Both the position numbers and the translations under genes were made by a program. Below the pieces are notes generated by a model. It made no database searches, had not been told where the DNA came from, and saw nothing but the letters and a program-made list of their open reading frames with translations. 64,000 nt of DNA from an uncultured delta proteobacterium (lineage in GTDB: Bacteria > Desulfobacterota > Desulfobulbia > Desulfobulbales > Desulfocapsaceae): assembly GCA_963847035.1 (NCBI GenBank), contig CAWJYH010000025.1, positions 1,190 to 65,189 on the forward strand. Direction: 5' to 3'. Positions 8,487 through 63,436 of the stretch are shown in pieces (within the stretch, counting starts at the first letter, position 1; each line of letters starts with the position of its first letter).

Positions 8487-9860
8487 TTATCCGATCATCA
8501 TGTTTTCTTCCGAGTATTCCTTGCCCCTGGTCGCATCGGTGCCGACGACGATATAGGAGAAGGTCAGGACGCCGACCCGGCCGATGATCATGATGAGGAC
8601 TATCCAGCACTTGTCCCAGGTGGTGAGGAACGAGGTGATCCCCATCGACAGGCCGACGGTGGCGAAGGCCGACACGGTTTCAAACAGGTACTGCAGGGTG
8701 TGGATCCTGGTCCGGCCGCCGGCGCTGGCGATGAACGAGTCGCTGAGCAGCAGCATGAACAGCACCAGACCGATGATGGCGATGGAGATGATGATCAGCG
8801 ACATGCTGCGGGTCACCGTCGCCTCCGGGATGCTCTTGTTGAACATGTTGACCCGTTTTTTGTGCTGGATCCGGCTGACGGTGAAGAGGGTGAGCAGGGC
8901 CAGGGTCGTGGTCTTGACCCCGCCGCCGCAGGAACCGGGCGAGGCCCCGACGAACATCAGGAAAATCATCATGACGATCGTCACCTCCCGGAGCGAGCCG
9001 ATGTCGACGGTGTTGAAGCCGGCGGTCCGGCAGGTGATCGACTGGAACAGGGGGATGAGGAACTGTTGCGACAGGGGCCTGCCGGCCAGGGTCGGGCTGC
9101 TGCTCTCCAGCAGGGAAAACATCGCGGCTCCGCCGACGATCAGGATCAGGGTGGTCAGCAGGACGGTCTTGCTTTGCACTGAAAGCCGCATCTTTCTCGT
9201 TGTCCGCCCCGGGAACCAGGCCTGCAGATCGTAGAGCACCGGGAAGCCGATGCCGCCGATGACGATCAGGAAACAGATGGTCAGGTTGAGCAGCCAATTA
9301 CCGCTGTAATGCACAAGTCCGTTGGAAAAAAGAGCGAACCCGGCGTTGCAGAAGGCCGAAATCGAGTGAAAGACCCCGTAGTATACCGCCTTCTCCAGCG
9401 GCATCTCGCCGACCCAGTGCGTTGTCAGCAGGATCGCCCCGACGGTCTCGGTCGACAGGGTGAAGATGATGACGCTCCGGACGAGTGTATAGATATCCTG
9501 GCGCGGCGTATGGGTGAACAGGTCCTGCATGACCATCCGGTGGCGGACCGAGACCGAACGGCCGAGCCAGGTGAACAGGGCGACCGAGATCGTCATCACC
9601 CCGAGACCGCCGATCTGGATGAGGGCCAGGATCACGCATTGGCCGAAGGTGGTGAAAAAGGTGCCGGTATCGACGACGGTCAGGCCGGTGACACAGACGG
9701 CGGAGGTGACGGTGAACAGGGCATCGATCCAGGAAATGTAGCCCTTGACGGTCGCTGTCTCGAGGCGGAGCAGCAGGCTGCCCGCCAGGATGAGCAGAAG
9801 AAAACTCGACAGAACCAGGGCCGCCGGGTGCATCTTCAGCATGTGACTTTTATGAGCCAT
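8487..9860 (-). CDS. trkH: K+ transporter membrane subunit TrkH/KtrB
   Basis: 457-aa polytopic protein with repeated pore-loop signatures (TGLT, IGGLGV, NAGF, TAGF, TVGLS) of the TrkH/KtrB/HKT family. Sits 14 nt upstream of trkA. Confidence 0.9.
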   Translation of the reverse strand: MAHKSHMLKMHPAALVLSSFLLLILAGSLLLRLETATVKGYISWIDALFTVTSAVCVTGLTVVDTGTFFTTFGQCVILALIQIGGLGVMTISVALFTWLGRSVSVRHRMVMQDLFTHTPRQDIYTLVRSVIIFTLSTETVGAILLTTHWVGEMPLEKAVYYGVFHSISAFCNAGFALFSNGLVHYSGNWLLNLTICFLIVIGGIGFPVLYDLQAWFPGRTTRKMRLSVQSKTVLLTTLILIVGGAAMFSLLESSSPTLAGRPLSQQFLIPLFQSITCRTAGFNTVDIGSLREVTIVMMIFLMFVGASPGSCGGGVKTTTLALLTLFTVSRIQHKKRVNMFNKSIPEATVTRSMSLIIISIAIIGLVLFMLLLSDSFIASAGGRTRIHTLQYLFETVSAFATVGLSMGITSFLTTWDKCWIVLIMIIGRVGVLTFSYIVVGTDATRGKEYSEENMMIG

Positions 9861-10122: not shown

Positions 10123-10270
10123 GAGCGCCTTCCCTTCGATGCCTACGAGGTTAGCTGTCGGGCTCGGGCCGAAGAGATTGCCCTACGCCGGTTTCCCGGT
10201 GATACGCCCCTTGAAATTGGGTCCCCCGTTCCCGTCCACCCGGACGGGATTCGGCAGACCGGGGCGCGAG
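10123..10270 (-). promoter_or_regulatory. c-di-AMP riboswitch (ydaO/yuaA class)
   Basis: Minus-strand RNA contains, in order and spacing, the ydaO blocks: GCCGAAUC, ACGGGGGACCCA, GGGGCGUAUC, CGUAGGG and CCCGAGCCCGACAGCUAACCUCGUAGGC. B. subtilis ydaO, from memory, has GCUUAAUC / GCGGGGGACCCA / GGGGUGAAUC / GGUAGGG / CACCCGAAUCCGUCAGCUAACCUCGUAAGC. GCGCC...GGCGC can close P1. Confidence 0.8.
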
Positions 10271-22634: not shown

Positions 22635-23978
22635 TTACCCTTCCTTCAGGGCCATGCGGGCGGCGATGACGATCGGATCCCACACCCCGGCAAAGGGCGG
22701 GGCATAGCTCAGATCGAGATAGAGCATCTCCTCCAGCGAAAAACCGGCATGGAGCGCGGTAGCCGCCGTATCGATGCGTTTGGCCGATCCCGGGCCGCCG
22801 ACGATCTGGACTCCCAACAGGCGGGCTGAACCCTTCTCCGCCAGCACCTTGACGCTGATCGGGGCCGAGCCCGGGTAATAGCGGGGCAGAGTGTGGGCCT
22901 CGATCAGACCGGTCGAGTACTCCATCCCCAGTGCCTTGATCTCCCTTTCGTTCAGCCCGGTCCGGGCGCACTCGGTGTCCATGAATTTCGTGATTGCGGT
23001 CCCGACCACGCCGGGAAAGGCGGCGGGCCGGCCCCCCAGATTCATGCCGGCTATCCGCCCCTGTTTGTTGGCGACGGTGCCCAAGGCGATATGTACCGGG
23101 CGGCGGCTGACCAGGTGGTAGGACTGGGCGCAATCACCCGCGGCCCAGATATTGGCCGTCTCGGTCTGCTGCATCGCGTTGACCTCGATGCTGTCCTTTG
23201 GGCCGAGCGGGATGCCGGCATCCTTCGCCAGGTCACTGTTGGGCGTGACTCCCAGCCCGAGGATGATCAGGTCGGCGGGGATGGTCTGCTTGTCGGTGAT
23301 GACGGCGACGGCCAGCCCATCCTTGTGGTCAAAGCCCTGCACCGTCTCGTTGACCCGGAGATCGATGCCGTTGTGAAGCAATGCCCGGTTGAGGAGTTGA
23401 CCCATCTCCGGATCGAGGGTCGACATCACCTGGGCGCTGCGCTGGACCATGGTGACGTTCAGGCCGCGCATGTGCAGGGCTTCGGCCATCTCCAGACCGA
23501 GATAGCCGCCGCCGATGATGACCGCCGACCGCGGCTGTTGCTCGGCCAGCGCCCGTTTGAGCAGCGAACCGTTGACGAGGTTGTGGACGTCGTAGATATT
23601 GCGGCTGTCGATGCCTTCGAGCGGAGGTCGGAACGGTCTGGCCCCGGTGGCGAGGAGCAGTTGATCGTAGTGTTGCCAGCGTTCGGACGAAGAGGTCAGG
23701 TCCGTTACCAGAACCCGTTGCCTGTGCGGATCGACGACCGTGACCTCGTGCCTGGTCTGGACGTTGATGTTGTGTTTTTCCCGGAACGATTGCGGTGTTC
23801 TGGCGATCAGCGCCTCTTCCCTGTCGACCAGACCGGCGACATAGTAGGGAATGCCTCAGGCTGAAAACGAGGTGTGCGGCCCGCGTTCAAAAACCGTGAT
23901 GGCGGCCGCCGGCTGCAGCCGGCGAACCAGCGAAGCGGCGGTCATGCCGGCGGCATCACCGCCGATGACGATCAGCAT
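22635..23978 (-). CDS. Pyridine-nucleotide-disulfide oxidoreductase of the CoA-disulfide reductase/NADH oxidase family, with in-frame UGA (Sec) at the catalytic Cys position
   Basis: ATG at 23978 (AAGGAG upstream). Reads MLIVIGGDAAGMTAA...FERGPHTSFSA[TGA]GIPYYVAGLV..., then 1344 nt in a single frame into the tracked 284-aa ORF. The only internal stop is the TGA at 23856-23858 (codon 41), aligned to Cys43 of CoADR (SFANCALPY). Confidence 0.8.
23819..23849 (-). promoter_or_regulatory. Candidate bacterial SECIS hairpin
   Basis: 15 nt after the UGA: GUCGCC-GGUCU-GG(U)CGAC (23823-23840), with a GU-containing apical loop and a bulged U, extended by CCCU/AGGG. The position of GGUCUG relative to the UGA is within one codon of E. 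coli fdhF as I recall it. Confidence 0.55.
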
Positions 23979-24054
23979 GGTATCTCCTTACTCCCCGGGT
24001 GGTGGCGATGCGGCAATCGGCTGGCCGAGCCCGGCGTCCCGGCCGTAGCCCCGT

Positions 24055-24960
24055 CTATCCCCTTCTGGCGACGACGAACAGCTCCAGGCTGATGATATCA
24101 TGCACCAGGTGCATGCCGAGGCGCTCGAAATAGCGGTACGATCCATAGCTCATATCCCACAGGGTCCGGTCGAGGTCGAAGGCCGCATGGACCTTTATGC
24201 TGCCATCTATTTGTGGGGCGGCAATGGCCGGGATCCGGACGGTCCGCCTGATCCCTTTGAGCGCCAGTTCCCCGGTAGCGATCCCGCCGAGGGCAATCGG
24301 GAAGGCTTCCGATTCCTCCTCCCAGCTCCGTATCGTCAGCGTGGCGGTCGGGAAACGATCGACGGCCAGGAAATCGTCCGATTTCAAGTGGGCGATGAGC
24401 ATGTCACGGTACGCTGGGTCCTGGAGGTCGAAATTGGTCAGAGAGTGCATATCGACGATGATCTCGGCTGACCGTGGTCGCCCGGCGGCAATAACCAGGT
24501 TGCCCTCGGTGATCGCCAGCTGGCCGATATGCCGGTTGTTGAGGCTGCGTCCGATCCATTCGATGCGGCTCTGCTGGACATCGAGAAGGTAGGTGCCGTC
24601 TGCCGCTGCGGATTCGGGGAAAGCGGGTCCAGCCCCGCCCTCAACCGCCAGGCCCGCCTGGCGCCAGGCTGTAAGACCTCCGGCAAGGATCGATACCCGC
24701 GTGTAGCCGGCCAGGAGCAACCGCTCCCGGGCCACCTCGGCAGTCCTGGTCGTGCCGGTGGCGTCATAGACGATCAGATCGGTGTTCAGACCGGAAACGA
24801 GTTCAGCGATCCGGTCCAGAAAAACTATCTCGTAAATGCAGGCGTTTCCGGACCCGGCAACATGGCATGCCGCGTAGTCCTCCGGTGTCATCACGTCGAT
24901 GACCACTGCGCCCATATCCAGGTGCTGTTTCACTTCATGACATTGTATGAAGGCAGTCAT
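24055..24960 (-). CDS. Rhodanese-homology domain (active-site Cys replaced by Asp) fused to a YceI-like domain
   Basis: N-terminal rhodanese fold (VIDVMTPEDYAACHVAGSGNA ... GGLTAWRQAGL) with active-site loop LIVYDATGTTRT. C-terminal YceI-like barrel (YLLDVQQSRIEWIG..., DMLIAHLKSDDFLAVDRFPTATL). Confidence 0.8.
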   Translation of the reverse strand: MTAFIQCHEVKQHLDMGAVVIDVMTPEDYAACHVAGSGNACIYEIVFLDRIAELVSGLNTDLIVYDATGTTRTAEVARERLLLAGYTRVSILAGGLTAWRQAGLAVEGGAGPAFPESAAADGTYLLDVQQSRIEWIGRSLNNRHIGQLAITEGNLVIAAGRPRSAEIIVDMHSLTNFDLQDPAYRDMLIAHLKSDDFLAVDRFPTATLTIRSWEEESEAFPIALGGIATGELALKGIRRTVRIPAIAAPQIDGSIKVHAAFDLDRTLWDMSYGSYRYFERLGMHLVHDIISLELFVVARRG

Positions 24961-42941: not shown

Positions 42942-44327
42942 CTACATGCAGAGCGCCTGGTGCAGGGCCCGCTGGGCCTGGGCGAACTGCGTTCTCTCGA
43001 CGATGAACTGCATATTGGTCTGGCGGGGGGTCTGGGAAACGGCCAGGATATTGATATCGTTGGCGGCCAGCGACTGGGCGGCCCTGGCCAGGATTCCAGG
43101 CTGACCGATATTCGAGCCGATGGCGCAGACGATGGCCACCGGTCGGCTGGAGACTGATTCGAATTTATCCCTCAGATCGCCCAGCAGCGCCGGCGAGCAG
43201 TCGCGGTCGGCGATGATCATCGCGATCGTGTTGGCATTCGTCGCCTTACTGATATAGGACACCTGGTGCTTGGCCAGGACCTGCATGATACGCAGATCGA
43301 AGCCGACTTCGCCGACCATGCGGGTATCATGGATCTCCAGGCTGACGGCCTTGTCGGAGCCAGTGACGATTTCGACCTTGGATCGGGGGGCGATGAAATC
43401 CTTCGTGATCAGGGTCCCGGAATGGTTGGGATCGAAGGCGTTTTTGATCCGGATCGGGATGGCATTGATCTCGAGCGGCTTCGACGCCTTCGGGTGGATC
43501 GCCTCCATGCCGACGTCGGCCAGCTGGTCGGCGACATCGAAGTTGGTGTTGCAGACCGGGTGGATCTTGTCCTCGCCGATGATCAGCGGGTCGCCGGAAC
43601 ACAGGTGGTACTCCTTGTGGATGATCGCCTCCTTGGCGCCGAGGAGGACCGCCACCTTCGAGAAGGTCACCTCGGAATAGCCGCGGTCGAATTCCCGCAT
43701 GATCCCTTCCTTGCCCTTGGTGTAGCCGGTGGCGAAACAGATGGTCGAAAACGGGTCGATGGCCTTGAAGCTGTCCTTGATCCGCTCGTCGATCGTCAGT
43801 TGCCGGCTGTCCTCCCAGCCGCTGAGGTCGATAAATGTCGAATTATATCCCTGGTTCTTCAGGATGTTCGCCGAGTTGAAGGCGCTGTGCATCTCGCCGA
43901 GGGATGCCAGCAGTTCGCGGGCGGCGAGGAGCAGGGCCTTGTGCGAGACGTATCCCGAGGAGAGGACGTTGTCCATGCTGCGGAGGATATTGATGGTCAG
44001 ATCGATATGGTCGCCGATGAAATCGTTGGCCTCGTCGAGGTCGAGTCCGACCGGCACCAGGGCCTCGTTGAGCTTGAACAGATTGTCCCGCAGATCGAGC
44101 AGCTTGCGGGGATAGTTCTGCTGCTCCTTGAACAGCTGGTAGATGCCGGGTTTGCCGGTCTTCTTGTGTTCGAGCAGTTCGTTGGTGATGCCGCTGTAGG
44201 CGGAGACGATATAGATCCGGCCGTAGATGTCGTCGGGATTGCGGAGGATGATGTTGTCGATGATCTCCGGAAACCGGGACATCGAGGTGCCGCCGATTTT
44301 TTCGACGCGAAGGAGTGGAGTATGCAT
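42942..44327 (-). CDS. Aspartate kinase (monofunctional, with C-terminal ACT domains)
   Basis: VEKIGGTSMS..., IVSAYSGITNELL, and C-terminal tandem ACT-like regions (VSLEIHD..., VAIVCAIGSNIGQPGILARA). Confidence 0.9.
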   Translation of the reverse strand: MHTPLLRVEKIGGTSMSRFPEIIDNIILRNPDDIYGRIYIVSAYSGITNELLEHKKTGKPGIYQLFKEQQNYPRKLLDLRDNLFKLNEALVPVGLDLDEANDFIGDHIDLTINILRSMDNVLSSGYVSHKALLLAARELLASLGEMHSAFNSANILKNQGYNSTFIDLSGWEDSRQLTIDERIKDSFKAIDPFSTICFATGYTKGKEGIMREFDRGYSEVTFSKVAVLLGAKEAIIHKEYHLCSGDPLIIGEDKIHPVCNTNFDVADQLADVGMEAIHPKASKPLEINAIPIRIKNAFDPNHSGTLITKDFIAPRSKVEIVTGSDKAVSLEIHDTRMVGEVGFDLRIMQVLAKHQVSYISKATNANTIAMIIADRDCSPALLGDLRDKFESVSSRPVAIVCAIGSNIGQPGILARAAQSLAANDINILAVSQTPRQTNMQFIVERTQFAQAQRALHQALCM

Positions 44328-44555
44328 GGGCTGCTCTGTCGGGACCGTGAGAAGGTGGACAATGCGGCGGGCAGGAGGTGTCCCTGCGGTTGTTCCGCCA
44401 CACCGGTTATGGTGATGACAGGCCGTTGCCGGCTGGCGGCAGCCGACCAGAAGCAGAAAAAGCTAGCACAGATGAAAGCCAAATATCAAGGCCTTTTTCT
44501 CCCCGGTCGGCGGCCGGCCGGGGGAAAGTCGCGGGTCGCAAACCATCTACCGTCG

Positions 44556-45107
44556 TCAGAAGGAAAAACGAAGTTCCAGCTGATGCAGGTTGAGGCTCGG
44601 GTTCCTCGAGTAAATGTGGCCGTTGGATTGGTGGCCATAGCGGTAGCCGAGGGACAGGAAGGGGGTCAGCCGGAGGGCGGAACCGGCATGGAACAGAAAA
44701 AAGATCGGGCCGCCGAGATCATGATCGCCGATAACCGAATCTTCCAGAACGCCTGCCCCGACCCCGGTATTGAAGGTGACTCTGGGTAACGGTGTCGATA
44801 GGACGAGGTCGGTGGAAATCGAGGCGCTGAGACCGTCGTCGTTCTCCTGGTGGAGGTCGCGCAGGGCCAGCTCGGCGCGGGTGGCGAGATCCCATCCGGG
44901 AGAGAAGGTCCAGCTCCATGGCAACCGGTGGGCGACGAAAAGATCCCCCTGGGTGATGTCTTCGCCCCGAAACGAGGTGCTGGCTCTGAATCCGACTGAA
45001 TCGAGTTTCATATCGGACGCGCCGGCGGCCGGCGGCATGACGGGCAGCAGGAGGAAGAGGATTGCCGCGAGATGTCGTGGCCGGGGTAGCTGTTCAGGTA
45101 CATGCAT
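44556..45107 (-). CDS. Acyloxyacyl hydrolase / lipid A deacylase PagL-like outer-membrane protein
   Basis: Signal peptide, 8-strand-sized barrel, GHQSNGH motif resembling the PagL H-x-S-N-G catalytic block, C-terminal ...LRFSF. Confidence 0.65.
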   Translation of the reverse strand: MHVPEQLPRPRHLAAILFLLLPVMPPAAGASDMKLDSVGFRASTSFRGEDITQGDLFVAHRLPWSWTFSPGWDLATRAELALRDLHQENDDGLSASISTDLVLSTPLPRVTFNTGVGAGVLEDSVIGDHDLGGPIFFLFHAGSALRLTPFLSLGYRYGHQSNGHIYSRNPSLNLHQLELRFSF

Positions 45108-46082: not shown

Positions 46083-46142
46083 CCTCCGGGATTTTCCAGT
46101 ATTTTCTGCGGCTTCGTCGTGATCGAAGTGGCCGGGACAACC

Positions 46143-47054
<912 letters not shown>

Positions 47055-47084
47055 GGCTGGCCTCTTCGTGGCGATATGGGTGGG

Positions 47085-48068
<984 letters not shown>

Positions 48069-48113
48069 GGCTGCGGTGCTCGCTGTTGGGGTAGGGGAAG
48101 GGAGGCGGCGGGG

Positions 48114-48752
48114 TCAGGCGCCGTCGGAATTTTTCTGTTCAATGATGAAGATACCATAAGTCGCCCGCCAATCGGCGAGAAATTCGACGACCTTGCCGCT
48201 GCGGCTGGCGGTGTCGGTATCGATGGCGATCTCGCGGACGATCCGGTAGCCGACGTCGCGGGCGAAGCGGCGGAAGTCGGCGAGGGTGATGACCCGGATG
48301 TTCGGGGTGTCGTACCAGGAGTACGGCAGCTGGTCGTTTTTCGGGGCCATGCCGCTCCACAGCAGCTGCAGCCGGATCGTCCAGTGGCTGAAGTTGGGGA
48401 AGCTGACGATCACCCGGCGGCCGATCCGGGCGAGGGAGCGGAGCAGGCGGGCCGGTTCGTAGACCTGCTGCAGGGTCTGGCTGAGGATGACGTAGTCGAA
48501 GCTTGCATCCGGGTAGTCTTCGACCTCGGTGTTGAGGTCGCCGTGGAGGACACTGAGACCGCGGGCGATGCAGCGGGCGGCCTTGTCCTTGTCCTGTTCG
48601 ATCCCGGCGCCCCGGACATCCCTGGCCGCCGCCAGCCAGGCCAGCAGGTCGCCGCTGCCGCAGCCGAGGTCGAGGACCCGGCTGCCCGGTTCGATCAGCG
48701 AGGCGATGACCTGGAGGTCGAACCGGATGTGTTCAGGCTGCGGCGACGCCAT
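48114..48752 (-). CDS. metW: Methionine biosynthesis protein MetW
   Basis: RFDLQVIASLIEPGSRVLDLGCGSGDLL and the rest match MetW. Overlaps the metX 3' end by 20 nt. Confidence 0.9.
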   Translation of the reverse strand: MASPQPEHIRFDLQVIASLIEPGSRVLDLGCGSGDLLAWLAAARDVRGAGIEQDKDKAARCIARGLSVLHGDLNTEVEDYPDASFDYVILSQTLQQVYEPARLLRSLARIGRRVIVSFPNFSHWTIRLQLLWSGMAPKNDQLPYSWYDTPNIRVITLADFRRFARDVGYRIVREIAIDTDTASRSGKVVEFLADWRATYGIFIIEQKNSDGA

Positions 48753-49890
48753 GGAGAAATCCTCCGATCAGGTTGGTCAGGCGCTCGTCCGGGATCAGGA
48801 AGGCGTCGTGGCCGCAGTCGGCCTCGATCTCGCAGAAGCTGACGTCCCGGCCGGCCCGCTTGAGCCGCCGCACCAGCTCCCTCGCCTGGTAGGTCGGGTA
48901 GAGCCAGTCGGAGCTGTAGGAGATCACGAGATACTTGATATCGGGCCGTTCGGATGCCGTCGGATCCGGCCGCTGCGTCATGTCGAAATAGTCGGCGGCG
49001 CGGGTGATGTAGAGCAGGGAATTGGCATCGAAGCGGCGGACGAACGTGCTGCCCTGGTGGCGGAGATAGCTCTCGACCTGGAAGTCGGCGTCGAAGCCGA
49101 AGGAGAAATCGTTCTTGTCCTGCAGCCGCCGGCCGAACTTGCGGCGCATCGCCTCGTCGGAGAGGTAGGTCACGTGGCCGACCATCCGGGCCACGGCGAG
49201 GCCGAGATCGGGACTGCGGCCGGTGTCGTAGTAGTTGCCGCCCTGCCAGTTGGGGTCGGCCATGATCGCCTGGCGGGCGATCTCGTTGAAGGCGATGGCC
49301 AGGGCCGAGTGGCGCATCGTCGTGGCGATCGGGATCGCCGAGCGCACGATCCGGGGGTAGCGCCGGCACCACTCGAGGACCTGCATGCCGCCGACCGAGC
49401 CGCCGACGACGGTCAGCAGGCGGTCGATACCGAGATGGTCGAGCAGCCGTTTCTGGGTCTCGACCATGTCGCCGATGGTGACCATCGGGAAGTCGAGGCC
49501 GTAGGGGCGGCCGGTGGCCGGGTTCATCGAGGAGGGGCCGGTGGTGCCCATGCAGGAGCCGAGGATGTTGGCGCAGACCACGAAATAGCGGTCGGTGTCG
49601 ATCCCCTTGCCGGGGCCGATCAGAAAGTCCCACCACCCCGGCTTGTCGTCCTCCGTCTCGCCGGGGTAGCGCCCTGCGGCATGGGAGTCGCCGGAAAAGG
49701 CGTGGGCGACCAGGATCGCGTTGTCGCGCCCCTCGTTCAGCCGGCCCCAGGTCTCGTAGGCGACGGTCACCGGCCCGAGCCGGGCGCCGCTCTCGAGGAC
49801 CATGGGTTCGGGCGGGTCGGCGAACCGGTGGTAGCGTTTTTCGACGATGCTGTTCGATGCCGGGGCGCTCTGTGCAGTGGCAGCGGTCAT
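48733..49890 (-). CDS. metX: Homoserine O-acetyltransferase MetX
   Basis: Alpha/beta-hydrolase fold with the GGSVGGMQ nucleophile elbow, the conserved PGWWD block, and a C-terminal ...CGHDAFL. Confidence 0.95.
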   Translation of the reverse strand: MTAATAQSAPASNSIVEKRYHRFADPPEPMVLESGARLGPVTVAYETWGRLNEGRDNAILVAHAFSGDSHAAGRYPGETEDDKPGWWDFLIGPGKGIDTDRYFVVCANILGSCMGTTGPSSMNPATGRPYGLDFPMVTIGDMVETQKRLLDHLGIDRLLTVVGGSVGGMQVLEWCRRYPRIVRSAIPIATTMRHSALAIAFNEIARQAIMADPNWQGGNYYDTGRSPDLGLAVARMVGHVTYLSDEAMRRKFGRRLQDKNDFSFGFDADFQVESYLRHQGSTFVRRFDANSLLYITRAADYFDMTQRPDPTASERPDIKYLVISYSSDWLYPTYQARELVRRLKRAGRDVSFCEIEADCGHDAFLIPDERLTNLIGGFLHGVAAA

Positions 49891-49899
49891 GGCCGATGG

Positions 49900-51189
49900 T
49901 CAGTCCTGTCCGGGGAACGCCCGGTCCAGCGCCTGGCCGAGGTCGGCGAGGATGTCGTCGATATGTTCGATCCCGATCGACAGCCGGATCATCGCGGCAT
50001 CGATGCCGGCCGCAGCCAGCTGCTCCGGCTGAAGCTGGGAGTGGGTGGTCGAGGCCGGGTGGATCGCGAGCGACTTGGCGTCGCCGACGTTGGCGAGATG
50101 CGAGAACAGCCGCAGGCCCTCGATGAAGCGGCTGCCGGCCGCCGCCCCGCCCCTGATCCCGAAGGCGACCATGCCGCCGTAGCCGTGGCGCAGGTATTTT
50201 TGGGCGATTGCCTGTCCGGGCGAGCCGGGCAGGCCGGGGTAGTTGACCCACGCCACCGCCGGGTGACGGTGGAGGTAGTCGGCGGCGGCCTGGCCGTTGG
50301 CGCTGTGCCGCTCCATCCGCAGGGCCAGGGTTTCGATGCCCTGGAGGAACAGCCAGGCGTTGTCCGGCGAGATGCAGGCGCCGAGGTTGCGCAGCGGCAC
50401 CAGGCGCAGCCGCAGGGCGAAGGCGATGCGGTTCATCTCCCCGAGATCATGGGCGTAGCGCAGGCCGTGGTAGCTGCCGTCCGGCTCGTTGTAGAGGGTG
50501 AATTTGGGATCGGTCCAGTCGAAGGTGCCGGCGTCGACGACAATGCCGCCGATGCCGGTGCCGTGGCCGCCGATCCACTTGGTCAGCGAGTGGACGACGA
50601 TGTCGGCGCCGTGCTCGATCGGCCGCAGCAGGTAGGGCGGGGTGAAGGTCGAATCGACGATCAGCGGCAGCCCGCGGCGATGGGCGATATCGGCCACCGC
50701 CTGGATGTCGGTCATGTTCAGCGCCGGGTTGCCGAGGGTCTCGCAGTACAGGGCGCGGGTGCGCTCGGTGATGGCATGGGCGAAATTCTGCGGGTCGCTC
50801 GGGTCGACGAGATGGACCTTGATGCCGAGCTGCGGCAGGATGGAGTCGAACTGCGAGTAGGTGCCGCCGTAGAGATTGTTGGCGGCCACGACCTCGTCGC
50901 CCTGGCGGCAGATATTGATGATGGCGTAGAAGATCGCCGAGGTGCCGGAGGCCAGGGCGACGGCCGCCGCTCCGCCCTCGAGGGCGGCGACCCGCTCCTC
51001 GAGCACGGCCTGGGTCGGGTTGCCGAGGCGGGTGTAGATATTGCCGAGCTCCTTCAGGGCGAAGAGGTTGGCGGCGTGTTCGGTGCTCCGGAACAGGTAG
51101 GCGCTGGTCCGGTACACCGGCACCGCCCGCGACAGGCTGTCCTGGTCGACGGTATGGCCGGCATGGAGGGCGAGGGTCTCGAATTTCAT
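49900..51189 (-). CDS. metY: O-acetylhomoserine sulfhydrylase (aminocarboxypropyltransferase) MetY
   Basis: MKFETLALHAGH..., NPT..VLEERVAALEGG, and PLP-Lys block HSLTKWIGGHG. Start at 51189. Confidence 0.95.
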   Translation of the reverse strand: MKFETLALHAGHTVDQDSLSRAVPVYRTSAYLFRSTEHAANLFALKELGNIYTRLGNPTQAVLEERVAALEGGAAAVALASGTSAIFYAIINICRQGDEVVAANNLYGGTYSQFDSILPQLGIKVHLVDPSDPQNFAHAITERTRALYCETLGNPALNMTDIQAVADIAHRRGLPLIVDSTFTPPYLLRPIEHGADIVVHSLTKWIGGHGTGIGGIVVDAGTFDWTDPKFTLYNEPDGSYHGLRYAHDLGEMNRIAFALRLRLVPLRNLGACISPDNAWLFLQGIETLALRMERHSANGQAAADYLHRHPAVAWVNYPGLPGSPGQAIAQKYLRHGYGGMVAFGIRGGAAAGSRFIEGLRLFSHLANVGDAKSLAIHPASTTHSQLQPEQLAAAGIDAAMIRLSIGIEHIDDILADLGQALDRAFPGQD

Positions 51190-51273
51190 GGTCTCTCCTT
51201 GAGGTTCGGGGCGGCCAGATGGATCTTCATCCGCTCCGGCAGCAGGCAACCGTTGCCGGACCGGGGCGGGCCG

Positions 51274-51879
51274 TTACTTGTCCTTCTGGTTCGCCAGTTC
51301 CTTCCGTACCCCGTCGATAAACTGGCGGACGCTGCTGCCGTCGGTCATCTTGGCCTCGGGGTTGAGGCGGAGCAGTTCTTCCCAGCTGGCGATCGCCCCC
51401 TGCGGATCATTGAGGTCAAAGAGCTGGACGATACCCTTGTTCAGGCGCGATGGTTCGTGTTGCGGATCGAGTTGCCGCGCCTTGTCGAAGGATTCGATCG
51501 CCTTTTCCTTCTGTCCGGTATTGCGGTACATGACGCCGAGATCGGTCAGCAGATTGGCGTCGGGCGGATGCAGGGCGATCGAACGGGTATAGGCCTGAAT
51601 CGCCTTCTCGTGTTGATGGGTATCGAAGTAAAGGTGGCCGAGCTTGATCCATGCCTGATAATCGTTCGGCTGGCTGGTGACCGCGCTTTCGAGCTGGGCG
51701 ATGGCGGCGGCCTGTTCCTGCGGAACCTGCTGGGCCGCCTGTTCTCCCGCTGCCGGTGGCGCCGCCATCCGGCTCGTCTTGTAAGTGGTGAAGGCGACAC
51801 CGGCGAGGAAGCCGCCGATGAAAACGATCAGGAGGAGGATCAGGTTGCGGTTTTTCGCTGCTGGCTGTGGTGGGGTCAT
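51274..51879 (-). CDS. Membrane-anchored TPR-repeat protein
   Basis: N-terminal TM (LILLLIVFIGGFLAGVAF) followed by about 3-4 TPR units (AWIKLGHLYFDTHQHEKAIQAY..., LLTDLGVMYRNTGQKEKAIESF...). Confidence 0.75.
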   Translation of the reverse strand: MTPPQPAAKNRNLILLLIVFIGGFLAGVAFTTYKTSRMAAPPAAGEQAAQQVPQEQAAAIAQLESAVTSQPNDYQAWIKLGHLYFDTHQHEKAIQAYTRSIALHPPDANLLTDLGVMYRNTGQKEKAIESFDKARQLDPQHEPSRLNKGIVQLFDLNDPQGAIASWEELLRLNPEAKMTDGSSVRQFIDGVRKELANQKDK

Positions 51880-52209
51880 AATTCGTCCGATATGGGAAGG
51901 AACGGGTTGGCGACGGTCTCGGATACGGCAGGGCGATGACAGTCGGATCAGTTTCTGCGAACGGCCTTCCTGTATACTGCAATGTGGTACAACTCTCAAC
52001 AAAAAGATGGAATCGCCCGCAAGGTCTGGACACTCCGCTGCAGTCATGGCAGACTGGAACGAAACAGAGCATTACCGTTTCACCGGCAGCCCATTTGGAT
52101 AGAAATAAGCAGGCTGAGTCCGCTGTCAATGTCAGGAATGCGGGGAGGGGGACGGAGAAGATGCGAAAGATGAACCGGGTTTCCCGGGGAGGATCAATGG
52201 AGACGGAAC

Positions 52210-54976: not shown

Positions 54977-55711
54977 TTGAGCATGGCAACGGATCTCGAC
55001 GCCTTGGTGCAGGAGAACAAGGAGCCGCTGAGCGAGTTAGAGAAGATCCTCGGTTATCGTTTCACCGACCTGCGGCTGTTGCAGCTGGCCCTCGTCCACT
55101 CCTCCTATTCCTTTGAACAGCCGTCCTTCGGCAAGAACAACGAGACCCTCGAGTACCTGGGCGATGCCGTCCTGTATCTGGCGGTCGGGCACCTGCTGCA
55201 CCAGCGGTATCCGGAGATGCGGGAAGGCGAGCTGACCCGGCTCCGGTCGGCCCTGGTCAACGAAACCCACCTGGCCCAGATGGCGCGCAACATCGAGCTC
55301 GGACGCTTCCTGCGCCTCGGCAAGGGGGAAGATGCCTCGAACGGCCGCAACAAGTCCTCTATCCTCAGTTCCGCCTACGAGGCGGTGATCGGAGCGATCT
55401 TCGAGGATGCCGGCTATTATCTGGCGGCCGATTGTATCGCAACCTTCTTCATCCCGGCGATCTCCGGCAAGAAGGAGGAACTGCTGGTGGCCGACGCCAA
55501 GAGCCGACTGCAGGAGATGCTGCAGGACAAGTATAACGAGGGGCCCCAGTACCAGCTGGATCAGGAGGAGGGGCCGTCGCACCAGCCGCTGTTCACCACT
55601 TCGGTCGTGTTCCGCGGCGAGGTCCTCGGCACCGGTCAGGCCCGGTCGAAGAAAGAGGCGGAACAGCGGGCCGCCGCCGCCGCTCTCGGTGTGCTGCAGG
55701 AAAGTCAATGA
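54977..55711 (+). CDS. rnc: Ribonuclease III
   Basis: RNase III signature NETLEYLGDAVL, and a C-terminal dsRBD (...GPSHQPLFTTSVVFRGEVLGTGQARSKKEAEQRAA). Start is TTG 54977 or ATG 54983. Confidence 0.95.
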   Translation: MSMATDLDALVQENKEPLSELEKILGYRFTDLRLLQLALVHSSYSFEQPSFGKNNETLEYLGDAVLYLAVGHLLHQRYPEMREGELTRLRSALVNETHLAQMARNIELGRFLRLGKGEDASNGRNKSSILSSAYEAVIGAIFEDAGYYLAADCIATFFIPAISGKKEELLVADAKSRLQEMLQDKYNEGPQYQLDQEEGPSHQPLFTTSVVFRGEVLGTGQARSKKEAEQRAAAAALGVLQESQ

Positions 55712-55717
55712 TCCGTC

Positions 55718-56746
55718 ATGCCTCTTGTCATTCCGCTCTTCATCCCGCATCGGGGATGCCCCCACCTCTGCCTTTTCTGTAACCAGCACAGCATTGTCGC
55801 GGCCTGTCCGGCGGCGGCGGATGCGGCGGCCATCGGCGATATCATCCGCACCTGGATCAGGCGCAGCCCGGGGTACGATGAGGTCCAGGCCGCCTTTTTC
55901 GGTGGTTCCTTCACCTGTCTGCCCCTGGCCGAGCAGGAGCGGCTGCTGGCGGCGGTGCGCCCGTTCGTCGATTCCGGCGAGGTGCAGACGATCCGTCTGT
56001 CGACCCGTCCGGATTGCATCGATGCCGAGACCTGCCGGTTTCTCCGCGACCATCGGGTCGGCATCGTCGAACTCGGTGTCCAGTCCTTCGACGACCGGGT
56101 GCTGCTGGCGGCCCACCGCGGCCATACGGCGGCGGACAGCCGGCGGGCGGTGGAACTGCTGCAGCAGGCCGGGATCGCGGTCGGTATCCAGTTGATGCCC
56201 GGTCTGCCGGGGGAGACGCATCGCTCCTTCATCGCCGGCATCCGCCGGACCATCGCCCTGGCCCCGGCCGTGGTCCGCCTTTATCCGGCGGTGGTACTGC
56301 GCAATACCGGCCTTGCCGCCGAGTGGCAGGCCGGCCGCTATCGGCCGCTGTCGCTCAACCAGGCGGTGGCGAAAACCGCCCGGGCGAAGGAGCTGCTCGC
56401 TGCGGCCGGTATCCGGGTGATCCGCATGGGCCTGCAGCCCTCCGCCGAACTGGAGGCCGAGATCGTGGCCGGGCCCTATCACCCGGCCTTCGGCGAGTGC
56501 GTCCAGTCGCGGCTGTGGTTCAAACGGATCCGGCGGCGGCTGGCAGGTCTGGCGGAAGGCGAACATCTGACGATCCGCATCTCCGGACGGGACCGGTCGG
56601 CCATCGTCGGCCGCCACCGAACCACCCTCCGGCGCCTGGCGGCCCTCGGCTACGCCGGCCGCTACACGCTGGAGGAGGACCGGCGGGCGGTACGGGGGAG
56701 TGTGGAATATGTTGTCAGTCAAAGCCCTCCTCCCCCCGCCTCCTGA
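55718..56746 (+). CDS. Radical SAM protein (ELP3-like N-terminal radical-SAM domain)
   Basis: FIPHRGCPHLCLFCNQ CxxxCxxC motif 7 nt after rnc, with a TIM-barrel-like continuation (FFGGSFT, ELGVQSF). Confidence 0.85.
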   Translation: MPLVIPLFIPHRGCPHLCLFCNQHSIVAACPAAADAAAIGDIIRTWIRRSPGYDEVQAAFFGGSFTCLPLAEQERLLAAVRPFVDSGEVQTIRLSTRPDCIDAETCRFLRDHRVGIVELGVQSFDDRVLLAAHRGHTAADSRRAVELLQQAGIAVGIQLMPGLPGETHRSFIAGIRRTIALAPAVVRLYPAVVLRNTGLAAEWQAGRYRPLSLNQAVAKTARAKELLAAAGIRVIRMGLQPSAELEAEIVAGPYHPAFGECVQSRLWFKRIRRRLAGLAEGEHLTIRISGRDRSAIVGRHRTTLRRLAALGYAGRYTLEEDRRAVRGSVEYVVSQSPPPPAS

Positions 56747-56923
56747 TTGCATCCGAGTCGCTGGAAGCCGCAGGGCTCGACGTCCATCAACAGCCTGCCA
56801 TCGATTTCGGCCGGCAACCCGTCGAGAGGATACCCCTGCTGCAGCGGCCATCCGGCACGGTCCTCGCCGGGCAACGCTCCTTGTCTCCGGCGGTGCGTTC
56901 CGTCAAGATTGCGACCGTCGGGC

Positions 56924-56989: not shown

Positions 56990-57599
56990 ATGCGCAACCG
57001 TGTCAATCATCTCCCGGCCGAGGAACGGCGTGCCGTGATTGTCCAGACCGTGATCGAACTGGCCGCCGGAGCAGCACCCGAACGGCATCACCACAGCGGC
57101 GATTGCCGAGCGCATGGGACTGACCCAGGGGGCCCTGTTTCGCCATTTTCCCAACAAGGCGGCGATACTGGAGGCGGTGATGGGGTGGGTGGTGGAGCGA
57201 TTGTCAGCCCGGTTGGCGAGGGCCACCGCGGGAGCGGCCTCACCCGCTGCCGCACTGGAGGCGATGTTCATGGCCCATGCCGGGTTTGTCGCCGACCATC
57301 CGGGCGTGCCCCATCTGCTGTTCGGCGAGCTGCAGAACGCTGACAAGACGGCCGCCAAGGCCATGGTGCAGTCGCTGGTCCAGCGGTATGGCGAGCGCTT
57401 GCGGGAGTTGATCGAACAGGGCAAGGCGATCGGCGAACTCGACCCCGACCTCGACACCGGGGCCGCCGCCATCCTGTTCATCGGCACGCTGCAGGGGCTG
57501 GTGGTGCAGTCACTGCTGGCCGGTGACGTCGGCCGCATCGGCGATGATGCGCCGCGGGTCTTTGCTATCTATCAACGTGGTATCAGGAGGAGATCATGA
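56990..57599 (+). pseudogene. TetR/AcrR-family repressor, needs a +1 frame correction near 57068
   Basis: Frame 2 reads MRNRVNHLPAEERRAVIVQTVIELAA. After one extra G, frame 0 continues EQHPNGITTAAIAERMGLTQGALFRHFPNKAAILEAV... (canonical TetR HTH). Length 610 nt = 3n+1. Confidence 0.75.
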
Positions 57600-58749
57600 A
57601 CCGATTCCCCATACAGAGGCGGACCCTGGTGATGCTGGCCGGATTTGTGCCCCTGATCGCCCTCTTCGTCTATGTCGCCTTGCGGTCGGGGGCGCTGGCC
57701 CCGGTGCCGGTGACGGTGGCGAAGGTGGAAAATCGCTCCGATCGCGCCGGCGCTGTTCGGCATCGGCACCGTCGAGGCCAGGTACACCTACCGGATCGGT
57801 CCCACCTTCACCGGGCGGGTCAAACGTCTGGATGTGGAGGTCGGAGATCACGTCGAGGCCGGCCAGGTCCTCGGCGAAATGGACCCGATCGATCTCGACG
57901 AGCGCATCCGCGCCCATGGAGGCGGCGCTGAAGCGCACCGCGGCCCAGATCGATGAAGCCCGGGCCCGCCATGGTTACGCCCAGGCCCAGGCCCGGCGGT
58001 ATCAAAGACTGCTGGAGGCGCGGACGACCAGCGAGGAGACCGTCACCACCAAAAAGAATGAATACCAGATCGCCGCGGCGAGTTTGAACGCGGCGCAGGA
58101 GGAATCGGTCCGCGTCGGCGCCGAACTGAAGGCCTTGATCGCCCAACGCGAGAGCCTTGTCCTTGTCGCCCCGGCCGCTGGGCTGGTCACCGCCCGCCAT
58201 GCCGATCCCGGCGCCACGGTCGTCGCCGGCCAGGCCGTTGTCGAGCTGATCGACCCCGCACAATTGTGGATCAATGTCCGTTTCGATCAGATCAATGCCC
58301 ATGGCCTTGCCGCCAATCTGCCGGCCCATATCGTCCTGCGCTCGCAGGCCGCCGAGTCCCGGGCCGGTCGCGTCTTGCGGGTGGAACCCTTGGCCGACGC
58401 GGTGACCGAGGAAACCCTGGCCAAAGCGGTCTTCGACGAGTTGCCGCAACCGCTGCCGCCGCTCGGCGAACTGGCCGAGGTCACCGTCGATTTGCCGCCG
58501 CTTGCGGCCGGGCCGGTGATTCCGAATGCGGCCATCCAGCGCATCGACGGCCAATTGGGGGTGTGGCGGGTCAGCGATGGCGATCTGCGCTTCACGCCGG
58601 TGACGTTGGGTATCGCCGATCTTGACGGTACTGTCCAGGTGCGCGATGGTCTCGAGGTCGATGACGAGATCATCGTTTACAGCGCCAAGGCCCTCCATCC
58701 GCGCAGCCGCATTCGCGTGGTCGAGCATCTGACGGGGGTAAAACCATGA
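57596..58749 (+). pseudogene. Efflux periplasmic adaptor (HlyD/MFP family), needs two +1 corrections (about 57740 and 57915)
   Basis: MNRFPIQ...VTVAKVENRS | IAPALFGIGTVEARYTYRIGPTFTGRVKRLDVEVGDHVEAGQVLGEMDPIDLDERIRA | MEAALKRTAAQIDEARA... is read across three frames. Length 1154 nt = 3n+2. ATGA overlaps with both neighbours. Confidence 0.75.
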
Positions 58750-59951
58750 TCAGTCTCGCCGGCCGCGACATCATGCACTCGCTGGGCAAGTTCGTCTTCA
58801 CCGGCATGGGCCTGGGACTGCTGATCGGGATCACCCTGTCGATGGCCGGCATCTACCGCGGACTGGTCGATGACGGCAAGGCCCTGCTCGAAAACAGCGG
58901 CGCCGACCTGTGGGTGGTGCAACGGGACACCCTCGGCCCGTATGCCGAATCGTCGAGCATCTACGACGATGTCTGGCGGAGCATCCGCGGCCTGCCGGGA
59001 GTCGCGCGGGCGGCCAATGCCACCTATTTCACGATGCAGGTGCGGCAGGGCGACCGGGACGTCCGGGCGATGGTCGCCGGCATCACCGCCGGCGCCCCGG
59101 GAACTCCGGGCTGGCCGCCCTATCTCGTTGCCGGCCGCCAGATCACCCGGGGCCATTACGAGGCGGTGGCCGACGTCGCCACCGGGTTTGCACTCGGTGA
59201 CCGCCTCCGGATCCGCCGCAATCTCTACACCGTCGTCGGCCTGACCCGGCGGATGGTCTCCTCCGGCGGCGATCCGATGGTCTTCATCCCCCTCAAGGAT
59301 GCCCAGGAGGCCCAGTTTCTCAAGGATAACGACGCCATCCGGCAGCAGCGCGAGCGCACCGCCGCAAATCCGGCGTTCAATCGGCCCCAGGTGCCGGGGC
59401 TCCTCGAGGCCGTCATCGCCTCGCAAAGCACCAACCTCTACGTCAACGCGGTCCTGGTGCAGATGAAACCAGGATATGAGGTGGAGGAAATGGCGCAGGC
59501 GATCCGCCGCTGGAAACGGCTGACGGTCTATACCCGCAGTCAGATGGAAGAGATCCTCGTCGGCAAGATGATCGCCACCTCGGCCAGGCAGATCTTCATG
59601 TTCCTGGTGATCCTGTCGCTGGTCAGCGCCGCCATCGTCGCCTTCATCATCTATACCCTGACGCTGGGCAAGATTCGCGAGATCGCGGTGTTGAAACTGA
59701 TCGGCACCAAGAACCGCACCATCGTCGGCCTGATCATGCAACAGGCCGTCGCCCTGGGGGCGATCGGCTTCATGGTCGGCAAGATCACCGCCACCCTGGT
59801 GATGGCGCCGATCTTTCCCAAATACGTCCTGCTGCAGCCGCTCGACTCGGTCATCGGCTTCGGCGCCGTCATGGTGATCTGCATGCTGTCGAGCATCGTC
59901 TCCATCCGCGCCGCGATGAAGGTCGATCCGGCCGAGGCCATTGGAGGTTGA
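58746..59951 (+). CDS. ABC transporter permease, FtsX/MacB-like (4 TM with large periplasmic domain)
   Basis: Intact 401-aa ORF. N-terminal TM, a periplasmic domain of about 230 aa, and a C-terminal FtsX domain (REIAVLKLIGTKNRTIVGLIMQQA...). Confidence 0.85.
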   Translation: MISLAGRDIMHSLGKFVFTGMGLGLLIGITLSMAGIYRGLVDDGKALLENSGADLWVVQRDTLGPYAESSSIYDDVWRSIRGLPGVARAANATYFTMQVRQGDRDVRAMVAGITAGAPGTPGWPPYLVAGRQITRGHYEAVADVATGFALGDRLRIRRNLYTVVGLTRRMVSSGGDPMVFIPLKDAQEAQFLKDNDAIRQQRERTAANPAFNRPQVPGLLEAVIASQSTNLYVNAVLVQMKPGYEVEEMAQAIRRWKRLTVYTRSQMEEILVGKMIATSARQIFMFLVILSLVSAAIVAFIIYTLTLGKIREIAVLKLIGTKNRTIVGLIMQQAVALGAIGFMVGKITATLVMAPIFPKYVLLQPLDSVIGFGAVMVICMLSSIVSIRAAMKVDPAEAIGG

Positions 59952-59952
59952 C

Positions 59953-60664
59953 ATGGATGGCAAAGGGATTCGCATCGAAGGCTTGAAAAAACGCTACGGC
60001 AGCGGCGATACCGCCGTCGATGCCTTGAAGGGCGTGGATATGGAGGTGGCCCCGGGCGAGGTGGTCGGCCTGGTCGGGCCTTCAGGGTCCGGCAAGAGCA
60101 CCCTGCTCAAATGCCTGGGCGCGATCATCGAACCGACCGCCGGGCGGATGACCCTCGGCGATGAGATTATTTATGATGACGGCTGGAAGGTCAAGGACCT
60201 GCGCGCCCTGCGGCGCGATAAAATCGGCTTTATATTCCAGGCCCCGTATCTCATCCCGTTCCTTGATGTCACCGACAACGTCGCCCTGCTGCCGATGCTC
60301 GCCGGCAGACCCAACCCCGAGGCGCGGCGGCATGGCGATCGAGCTGTTCAAGGCGCTCGAGGTCGAGCATCGCGCCAGGGCCATGCCGTCACAGCTCTCC
60401 GGCGGGGAACAGCAGCGGGTGGCCATTGCCCGGGGCCTGGTCAACCGTCCGCCGGTGATCCTCGCCGATGAACCGACCGCCCCGCTCGACAGCGAACGCG
60501 CCCTGGCGGTGATCCGGATCCTGAACGATATGGCGCAGCAATTCGAAACGGCGATCATCGTCGTCACCCACGACGAAAAGATCATCCCGACGTTCAAGCG
60601 CATCTATCACATCCGCGATGGGGTGACCTACGAGGAAGCCGGCGAAGGGCGGGTCCTCGCATAA
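59953..60664 (+). pseudogene. ABC transporter ATP-binding protein (MacB/LolD-like), needs a +1 correction near 60334
   Basis: MDGKGIRIEGLKKRYG...GPSGSGKSTLL...PNPEARRH | AIELFKALEVEHRARAMPSQLSGGEQQRVAIARGL...ILADEPTAPLD...VVTHD. Length 712 nt = 3n+1. Confidence 0.8.
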
Positions 60665-61739: not shown

Positions 61740-62084
61740 GGGTTGTTTCTCCTGTGAATGGTGCGGACAGCGGTATCGGTCGGCTTGTGACGCGGCGATT
61801 CCGGGCGATGGGTTGATGGGATGTGGCTTTTCCCAACCCCACGATACCATTTTCACGAGCAGGGAGAAACGGGATCTTTCCATTGACCGTGCCTCCAGGG
61901 GGACGCGGTCGATCTCAGGCCCGGGCTCCGGGAAAACCGCATCCTGTTCTGCCGGCGTCACCGTTGCAACGCCGAGACAGCCGGAGTTTGCATAAGGCAT
62001 TTACCCGGAGGAGGGCGATGAACGCGAAGCCGCCGCCTTTCCCCGGACAACTGAACCACGACAACCAGGAAATCGATATCCGCG

Positions 62085-63338: not shown

Positions 63339-63436
63339 TTGTATGGCACGTATGCTGCGGTCGACTTGATCAGAAAACGAGTCGGCCTCTCTCATGGCAA
63401 GCACGGTCTGTCTGCGAGTTGCCCTAACACTCGCAG

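Follow-up and report, generated by a model that had tools for sequence, protein, structure and literature searches.

A probable selenocysteine codon at the catalytic position of a CoADR/Nox-type flavoenzyme gene from the Desulfobulbales

The window examined here is a 64,000-nucleotide (64-kb) stretch of DNA from an uncultured delta proteobacterium of the family Desulfocapsaceae, order Desulfobulbales (GenBank assembly GCA_963847035.1, contig CAWJYH010000025.1, positions 1,190 to 65,189 of the forward strand); its subject is a single gene on the minus strand, at 22635-23978, whose reading frame is interrupted by an in-frame TGA. The interruption is very probably (0.93, at a rough estimate) no defect: the gene is intact and the TGA encodes selenocysteine (Sec) at the catalytic position of a flavoenzyme of the coenzyme A (CoA)-disulfide reductase/NADH oxidase (CoADR/Nox) type. 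The original prediction, made from the letters alone, had favored Sec insertion over decay, and that preference is now supported by conservation of the TGA among relatives, by ratios of nonsynonymous to synonymous change (dN/dS) of about 0.1 on both sides of it, by the cysteine (Cys) that other homologues carry in its place, and by selection on a hairpin that lies just 3' of it.

The gene and its reading frame

Translated from the ATG at 23978-23976 to the TAA at 22637-22635, the minus strand is one frame of 447 sense codons plus TAA, and the only stop within it is the TGA of codon 41 (23858-23856). The open reading frame (ORF) lister gives no more of this gene than a 284-amino acid (aa) piece at 22635..23489, because the frame has no ATG, GTG or TTG between the TGA and Met164; the piece is an artefact of reading UGA as stop. 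The gene is thus much as it had been drawn beforehand, with a frame that stays open from the ATG at 23978 through the TGA into the tracked ORF, an AAGGAG 5 nucleotides (nt) 5' of that ATG, and a split that belongs to the ORF track. (An ORF at 22893..23864, antisense to the gene, was considered and rejected as a shadow ORF.) The features of the gene, including its putative selenocysteine insertion sequence (SECIS) and the motifs that bind flavin adenine dinucleotide (FAD) and NAD(P)H, are these:

22635..23978, minus strand: predicted selenoprotein gene, 447 codons plus TAA, for a CoADR/Nox-type FAD-dependent pyridine nucleotide-disulfide oxidoreductase with Sec at residue 41 (from the frame, Pfam, NCBIfam and structure alignment)
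23984..23989, minus strand: Shine-Dalgarno sequence AAGGAG, ending 5 nt 5' of the ATG; purine-rich GGAG-type motifs stand at the equivalent site in orthologues
23946..23963, minus strand: FAD-binding GxGxxG motif GGDAAG, residues 6-11 (G6, G7, D8, A9, A10 and G11 invariant), 5' of the UGA
23856..23858, minus strand: UGA codon 41, the probable Sec codon, at the catalytic-Cys position; TGA in 41/41 distinct Sec forms, TGC or TGT in 59 Cys forms
23841..23855, minus strand: 15-nt spacer from UGA to hairpin, codons 42-46 (GIPYY), including CCCU (23849-23846), which is complementary to AGGG (23822-23819)
23823..23840, minus strand: upper hairpin of the putative SECIS, GUCGCC-GGUCU-GG(U)CGAC, codons 47-52 (VAGLVD), with a 6-bp stem, a U bulge on the 3' arm and the GGUCU loop at 23834-23830
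23496..23513, minus strand: NAD(P)H-binding GxGxxG motif GGGYLG, residues 156-161, inside the Pyr_redox domain
22635..23489, minus strand: the 284-aa ORF-caller fragment, an artefact of UGA taken as stop

Protein family and catalytic position

With Cys put in place of residue 41 for scoring, the product matches Pyr_redox_2 (9.5e-60, residues 2-297), Pyr_redox (residues 152-227) and Pyr_redox_dim (residues 328-431) in Pfam, and its best NCBIfam models are two CoA-disulfide reductase equivalogs, TIGR03385 (3e-137, 458 bits, positions 2-439 of 439) and NF007123 (416.6 bits). The closest solved structure is the CoADR of Bacillus anthracis (3cgb; E 4.6e-102, full-length alignment), and other near structures are the NADH oxidase of Thermus thermophilus (6ruz), the Pyrococcus CoADRs (5l1n, 3kd9, 4fx9) and the rhodanese-fused Npsr/CoA-persulfide reductases (3nta, 8a56). 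These Cys-type relatives, together with the CoADR of Staphylococcus aureus (PDB 1yqz), align over their full length at E values from 1e-102 to 1e-59 and share with the window protein both Rossmann motifs, the dimerisation domain and the position of the catalytic residue. The difference lies in that residue, which is Cys in all of them and would be Sec here; the Npsr and CoADR-RHD proteins additionally carry a fused C-terminal rhodanese domain, while the window protein has none.

The Cys at the active site of CoADR, Nox and Npx enzymes is their single redox-active residue. That the TGA falls precisely on it, as had been claimed, is borne out by structure-sequence alignments in which position 41 stands opposite the Cys of the xCG(L/I)PY motif of 3cgb, 6ruz and 5l1n, and by the alignment of SFSA-U41-GIPY with SFANC43ALPY of the S. 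aureus enzyme (the query sequence of which is identical to 1yqz over 115 residues). Following the second Rossmann beta-strand the window protein has Gln-Arg-Ser where the B. anthracis CoADR and the T. thermophilus Nox have Glu; this replacement of the acidic residue of NADH-specific relatives weakly suggests a preference for NADPH.

Conservation of the TGA and selection on either side of it

Is the TGA a peculiarity of one assembly or the property of a lineage? A search of 5.8 billion proteins sorts the homologues by their distance. At 63% identity or above there are 76 clusters, every one of them of N-terminally truncated proteins, 284-405 aa long, that start at varied internal codons; the full-length homologues, at 56-62% identity, have Cys at the Sec position in 44 of 44 cases, within the motif TS(Y/F)(S/A)ACG(I/M)P, and TGC or TGT at their catalytic codon has been confirmed in DNA. 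(Searching with the N-terminal 122 residues for annotated full-length Sec forms yielded short fragments only.)

The DNA of 28 genome loci of relatives was retrieved. TGA occupies the homologous codon in 26 of them (72-92% identity), and TAA or TAG in none; the remaining two, remote loci at 39-42% identity, have TGC. Nearly all of the 26 are from Desulfobulbales, including Desulfobulbus sp. Tol-SR and Desulfoprunum benzoelyticum DSM 28570, and 40-42 codons 5' of their TGA the relatives have a start codon that is preceded by a purine-rich ribosome-binding site. The orthologue of D. benzoelyticum (L002), at 91% identity, reads GPYTSFAA-U-GIPYYVAGLVDR around the Sec position. One Desulfobulbus metagenome-assembled genome (MAG) holds two paralogous Sec-type copies, on its contig_3 and contig_2 (L010 and L011), both with intact frames and with TGA at codon 41. 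Had the orthologues shared the TGA together with further disruptions, decay would have been the better explanation; instead, 22 of the 26 genome copies (69-98% pairwise identity) are otherwise intact, at 447-451 residues from start to stop. The other four are three MAG copies with frameshifts (L023, L024, L027) and a copy matching residues 1-194 only (L026), which lies on a contig that is binned as Acidobacteriota and may be mis-binned. More distant truncated calls also keep the TGA (L030 and L031 at 64% identity, L032 at 67%).

Taken together, the other distinct homologues with TGA at codon 41 number 40: 29 of the gene's own lineage (64-92% identity, mostly Desulfobulbales) and 11 of a second group (52-58%), which is described below; TAA and TAG do not occur among these either. 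With the window gene included, the Sec codon is TGA in 41/41 distinct Sec-form sequences, and 59 Cys forms have TGC or TGT. Because it recurs at the identical codon in 40 other distinct homologues, the TGA at codon 41 is far beyond chance. The proposed alignment with Cys-containing homologues thus separates near orthologues, which have TGA, from full-length distant ones, all of which have Cys. A 149-aa fragment of degenerate sequence (P0121), in which Arg takes the place of Sec, has the look of a decayed copy.

The 40 codons that precede the TGA are held in place as firmly as those that follow it: dN/dS comes to 0.08 over codons 1-40 and to 0.10 over codons 42-447 (Nei-Gojobori, 253 sequence pairs), with a proportion of synonymous differences (pS) of about 0.58, so that synonymous sites are near saturation across the intact orthologues. 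Both halves of the gene are therefore translated in this frame and equally constrained, and this equality of constraint on the two sides of the TGA excludes decay, sequencing error and a two-product locus. The terminal stop codon of 16 of 23 intact orthologues is itself TGA, and TGA is therefore still an ordinary stop in these genomes.

The hairpin 3' of the UGA

Located at 23840-23823 on the minus strand, the hairpin GUCGCC-GGUCU-GG(U)CGAC starts 15 nt 3' of the UGA, just where it had been predicted, and turns out to be the most synonymously constrained six-codon stretch of the gene. When 23 intact sequences (pairwise amino-acid identity 69-98%) were scanned, synonymous diversity proved to be lowest in codons 47-52, which rank 1 of 333 six-codon windows (0.11 vs a gene mean of 0.45; permutation p ~1e-5), and of the 11 invariant degenerate codons of the entire gene 5 fall in codons 44-52. 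The six upper-stem pairs are 99.4% paired over 27 distinct sequences. The changes that these sequences show in the stem are one two-sided compensatory replacement of G-C by A-U (in L030), an alternation at pair 4 between G-C and G-U (15:12), and a single replacement of C-G by U-G. The apical loop is GGUCU in the Sec lineage, with AGUCU in L030, and one relative (L009) has the hairpin without any bulge.

The comparison with Cys forms bears on the same point. Three of these (L033, L035, L036) encode VAGLVD or VAGLVE with other codons, which break the stem; in L035, GUG stands in place of GUC, so that C3 of the stem is lost. The outer four base pairs can form in 41/41 distinct Sec forms vs 5/59 Cys forms, and the median folding energy of the 18-mer is -5.7 kcal/mol in Sec forms vs -1.7 kcal/mol in Cys forms (Mann-Whitney p = 9e-11, a value that overstates independence, the sequences being related). 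Judged by these comparisons among relatives, the upper hairpin is under selection at the level of RNA. The CCCU/AGGG flank, which had been proposed along with it, fares less well: it is present in the window sequence but the lower helix that it would form is not conserved across relatives, being broken in 6-10 of the 27 distinct sequences (76% paired), and it has been rejected as a part of the SECIS.

Other readings of the UGA

If the TGA does not specify Sec, what else might it be? One proposal is that a gene of the Cys type is decaying and has acquired a nonsense mutation, or that it was mis-sequenced and a base miscalled. The neighborhood and the family offer it some encouragement, in that at least one gene elsewhere in the window appears to be frameshifted (an ABC ATPase gene near 60.33 kb), three of the relatives are frameshifted as noted above, and the degenerate, truncated P0121 has Arg at the Sec position. 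But an identical TGA codon in 41 distinct sequences from independent assemblies, with 22 genome copies otherwise intact and dN/dS at about 0.1 on both sides although synonymous sites approach saturation, is at odds with error and with decay alike, and in a gene that was decaying selection would not persist on the 40 upstream codons or on the FAD motif. Conservation of the TGA in orthologues and the dN/dS values have effectively refuted this proposal, whose probability is close to negligible. Hardly more credible is the suggestion that UGA simply terminates, and that two separate products arise from the locus, a peptide of 40 residues and, by re-initiation further downstream, an enzyme truncated at its N terminus. 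Public annotation pipelines do call just such truncated proteins, of 357-405 aa, but the calls start at differing, non-conserved internal codons, and the window gene offers no in-frame ATG, GTG or TTG before Met164 at which to restart. A product starting after the UGA would lack both the FAD-binding GGDAAG and the catalytic residue, and the constraint on the 40 codons upstream of the UGA equals that on the remainder of the gene.

That the UGA is read through and yet decoded as something other than Sec, whether by near-cognate read-through (to Trp or Cys) or by a lineage-wide reassignment, has in its favor that selenium incorporation is inferred and that no sel genes are visible within the window; it is nevertheless very improbable. 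UGA is a normal terminator in the orthologues (16 of 23) and in many genes of the window, and there is therefore no global reassignment. A hairpin with GGU in its loop, at a fixed distance from the UGA, confined to UGA forms and lacking in Cys forms, is the signature of dependence on SelB. Moreover, relatives within the order use Sec. Desulfotalea psychrophila is a member of the Desulfobulbales. It is a documented Sec user, with SelD and 12 selenoproteins (PMC1794560).

A number of observations weigh against Sec insertion, or against the details of the account given of it, and are best considered together. None of selA, selB, selC and selD was found in the 64-kb window (by ARAGORN and Rfam, and by Pfam and NCBIfam on about 70 window ORFs), and ARAGORN found no tRNA-Sec in the flanks of 29 related loci. 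Indirect support for the presence of the machinery comes from the Sec use of D. psychrophila and from the consideration that a UGA with its SECIS could not stay under selection in dozens of genomes that had no means of inserting Sec. The statistics that set Sec forms apart from Cys forms by their hairpins ignore phylogenetic non-independence. The fold of the 71 nt at 23795-23865 is unremarkable (z = -0.6 vs shuffles), and its minimum-energy structure does not show the proposed hairpin; because of that z score thermodynamics alone cannot support a SECIS, and it is the comparative evidence that does. Nor did any family of Rfam (release 15) match 23700-23950 at a permissive threshold, where two unrelated matches came up at the level of chance (E = 6.5 and 9). 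The protein falls short of the cut-offs of both CoADR equivalogs (458 vs 578.8 bits for TIGR03385; 416.6 vs 458 for NF007123), and for this reason its substrate may differ from that of CoADR: by sequence it is a CoADR-like protein, for which CoA disulfide is a candidate substrate. A biochemical study of a Sec form was not found in the literature, and a review of 2026 places the family under "predicted with high confidence" (PMC9312934, PMC13188914).

Comparison with the SECIS of Escherichia coli fdhF (for which the sequence used agrees at 100% with fdhF of 5413 E. coli records) cuts both ways. Each is a hairpin within the coding sequence just 3' of the UGA, with a short upper stem, one bulged U and the identical hexamer GGUCUG to supply the apical GGU. 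In the window gene this GGU occupies nt 25-27, counted from the U of UGA, vs nt 22-24 in fdhF: it is 3 nt, or exactly the one codon that had been anticipated, further away (nt 25 vs nt 22). Two differences belong with the adverse observations listed above, namely the spacer, which is 11 nt in fdhF vs 15 nt here, and the placement of the bulged U, which is on the 5' arm in fdhF (U17) and on the 3' arm here. The GU-containing loop and the bulged U that the original prediction had expected of a bacterial SECIS are accordingly both present, but the U is on the other arm. Measured against the fdhF type, the element has the apical G/U at about 20 nt after the UGA, and has neither the bulged U of the 5' arm nor the 11-nt spacer; it also has no conserved extended lower helix. 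It is an element that would work like the fdhF SECIS without being a copy of it.

A proposed mechanism

With Sec at codon 41 as the preferred reading, the product would be a homodimeric flavoenzyme of 447 residues (about 48 kDa) belonging to the single-cysteine CoADR/Nox/Npx group, its redox-active Cys replaced by Sec. A ribosome arriving at UGA-41 would encounter SelB-GTP, carrying Sec-tRNA(Sec), bound to the 18-nt hairpin whose start lies 15 nt beyond that codon; in the apical loop, GGU is the likely counterpart of the G23 and U24 that are recognised in E. coli fdhF, and Sec would be delivered in place of chain termination by release factor 2. In the catalytic cycle NAD(P)H would reduce FAD, and FAD would in turn reduce a selenenylsulfide (Sec41-Se-S-R) or a selenenic acid (Sec41-SeOH), releasing a selenolate to attack the next disulfide, persulfide or peroxide substrate. 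The two candidate oxidised forms are suggested by analogy: with CoADR (Cys-S-S-CoA) for the selenenylsulfide, with Nox and Npx (Cys-SOH) for the selenenic acid. To judge from the closest solved structures, the best guess for the substrate is CoA disulfide, CoA persulfide or polysulfide.

Mammalian thioredoxin reductase (TrxR) is the familiar instance of a disulfide reductase of the FAD/NAD(P)H fold that uses Sec in redox catalysis, and the resemblance goes that far. The Sec of TrxR resides in a C-terminal GCUG extension, where it shuttles electrons from an N-terminal CxxxxC pair, and its SECIS is located in the 3' untranslated region; the Sec of the window protein would be the flavin-proximal redox center itself, with a SECIS inside the coding sequence.

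Relation to the known selenoprotein family

A family of Sec-containing FAD-dependent oxidoreductases was reportedly predicted by Kryukov and Gladyshev in 2004 (reference 12 of the reviews). What earlier listings of this family amount to is readily summarized. A selenoprotein designated "NADH oxidase" is listed for Geobacter metallireducens (PMC1794560) and for the delta-1 symbiont of Olavius (PMC1976440), and the genome tables of 2006-2007 represent the family by single genes (PMC1794560, PMC1976440). The family, with its motif UGxP, is listed in PMC13188914, and the reviews give WP_011365774.1 of G. metallireducens as an example (PMC9312934, PMC13188914). The window gene belongs to this already predicted selenoprotein family and is a sound find, not a novel one: the protein is of the same family (COG0446, TIGR03385-like), with Sec for the single redox-active Cys, residues 41-44 are U-G-I-P and fit the motif, and the host is again deltaproteobacterial. 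It differs in being a member of an exclusively Sec clade of Desulfobulbales with 24 sequenced members.

What the analysis adds to the prediction can be put as follows: 1) The breadth of the Sec clade in the Desulfobulbales is now apparent, as are a second Sec group with its own variant of the hairpin and a repeated switching between Sec and Cys. 2) A minimal SECIS is now defined for the family, an 18-nt hairpin that starts 15 nt after the UGA and has GGU in its loop. 3) The gene should be called as one selenoprotein of 447 residues. In public entries of the closest relatives it is still mis-annotated: P0002 (nr, Desulfoprunum benzoelyticum; 398 aa) and P0001 (a Desulfoprunum sp. MAG; 405 aa) start just after the UGA and are named "FAD-dependent oxidoreductase". 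4) Because D. benzoelyticum DSM 28570 is in culture, it offers a practical route to a first biochemistry of a Sec-type CoADR.

A second Sec group and the exchange of Sec and Cys

A scan of metagenomes provided 80 loci, with TGA at the catalytic codon in 13, TGC or TGT in 56, and a codon that the motif search did not locate in 11. Eleven of the TGA loci constitute the second Sec group (L042, L044, L047, L049, L054, L060, L065, L066, L068, L073 and L077): the proteins share 52-58% identity with the window protein and run to about 451 residues, and apart from the Sec codon, at about residue 45, their frames are unbroken. The hairpin of this group, GUCGGC-(A/C)(A/G)GGUU-GUCGAC, keeps the 15-nt offset and the GGU in the loop, and is fully paired, with no bulge.

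Cys forms (L040, L045, L059, L067) are interleaved among the members of this group. In neighbor-joining trees the 24-member core clade that contains the window gene is exclusively Sec (92/100 bootstrap replicates), all Sec forms are monophyletic in 0/100 replicates, and one tight subclade (100/100) mixes 4 Sec forms with 3 Cys forms. The non-monophyly of Sec and the mixed subclade indicate, therefore, that Sec and Cys have been exchanged repeatedly in this family.

How would such an exchange come about? The arms of the stem, GUCG...CGAC, are supplied by the codons for Val-(Ala/Gly) and Val-Asp, and the hexamer GTCGAC is palindromic. One Cys form (L040) has TGC together with an intact hairpin (-8.9 kcal/mol), and another (L116) has an almost complete one. 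It is conceivable, though on present indications rather unlikely, that the SECIS predates the UGA, in the sense that Val-(Ala/Gly)-x-x-Val-Asp codons might give Cys forms a latent SelB hairpin at the right distance. If that were so, the switch from Cys to Sec would be a one-step event; the interleaving of Sec and Cys within tight clades would be explained, the Desulfobulbales clade of the window gene having stayed fixed for Sec; and the family would lend itself unusually well, as a natural system, to measuring the gain from Sec over Cys at a flavin-proximal redox center.

Genomic context and other features of the window

The upstream neighbor of the gene is the following:

24055..24960, minus strand: rhodanese-YceI fusion gene, upstream on the same strand across a 76-nt gap

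It is possibly co-transcribed with the predicted selenoprotein gene, and is shared at this position with L001 and L014 only. Comparison of the flanks of related loci revealed no gene neighborhood that is conserved across the clade, and because of this the genomic context is of no help on function. Inspected by eye, the active-site loop of the rhodanese domain is VYDATGTTRT; Asp occupies the place of the expected catalytic Cys, and the domain may be inactive. The match of this gene to the "rhodanese-related (seleno)protein" model NF041203 is not significant (23.9 bits vs a cut-off of 115).

No second selenoprotein gene was found when all TGA-joined ORF pairs of the window were scanned; two candidates were examined and rejected. 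The pair 54977-55711 and 55718-56746 on the plus strand, joined by the TGA at 55709-55711, proves to be two ordinary genes (rnc and radical SAM) that happen to share a frame: the first ends in a motif that resembles, by eye, the double-stranded RNA-binding domain of RNase III, and the second has its own ATG and the motif CPHLCLFC. The other candidate, at 59941-60664 (plus strand), is a frameshifted gene for the ATPase of an ABC transporter, with the Walker A half in the ORF 59941-60471, the LSGGEQQR/Walker B half in the ORF 60161-60664 and the junction at about 60320-60340. The split may be either an assembly indel or a pseudogene; it adjoins genes for a MacB/FtsX permease (58746-59951) and an HlyD-like protein (57523-58749).

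Elsewhere in the window, a c-di-AMP riboswitch (10125-10266, minus strand, 93 bits) lies 5' of a gene for a TrkH-family cation transporter (8487-9860), which is a known arrangement. Seven long ORFs have no Pfam or NCBIfam match: 43266-44789, 46119-48842, 48529-51939 (1136 aa), 55037-56851, 58677-59975, 60714-62000 and 62001-63440. They were rejected as unusual genes, most of them being antisense shadows of ordinary genes in DNA of 60-67% GC; the genes opposite the shadows are aspartokinase-like, or encode a LysR regulator, a Cys/Met PLP enzyme, a radical SAM protein, an FtsX permease and an M48 peptidase. The ORF at 60714-62000, unlike the other long ORFs, has no partner gene on the opposite strand.

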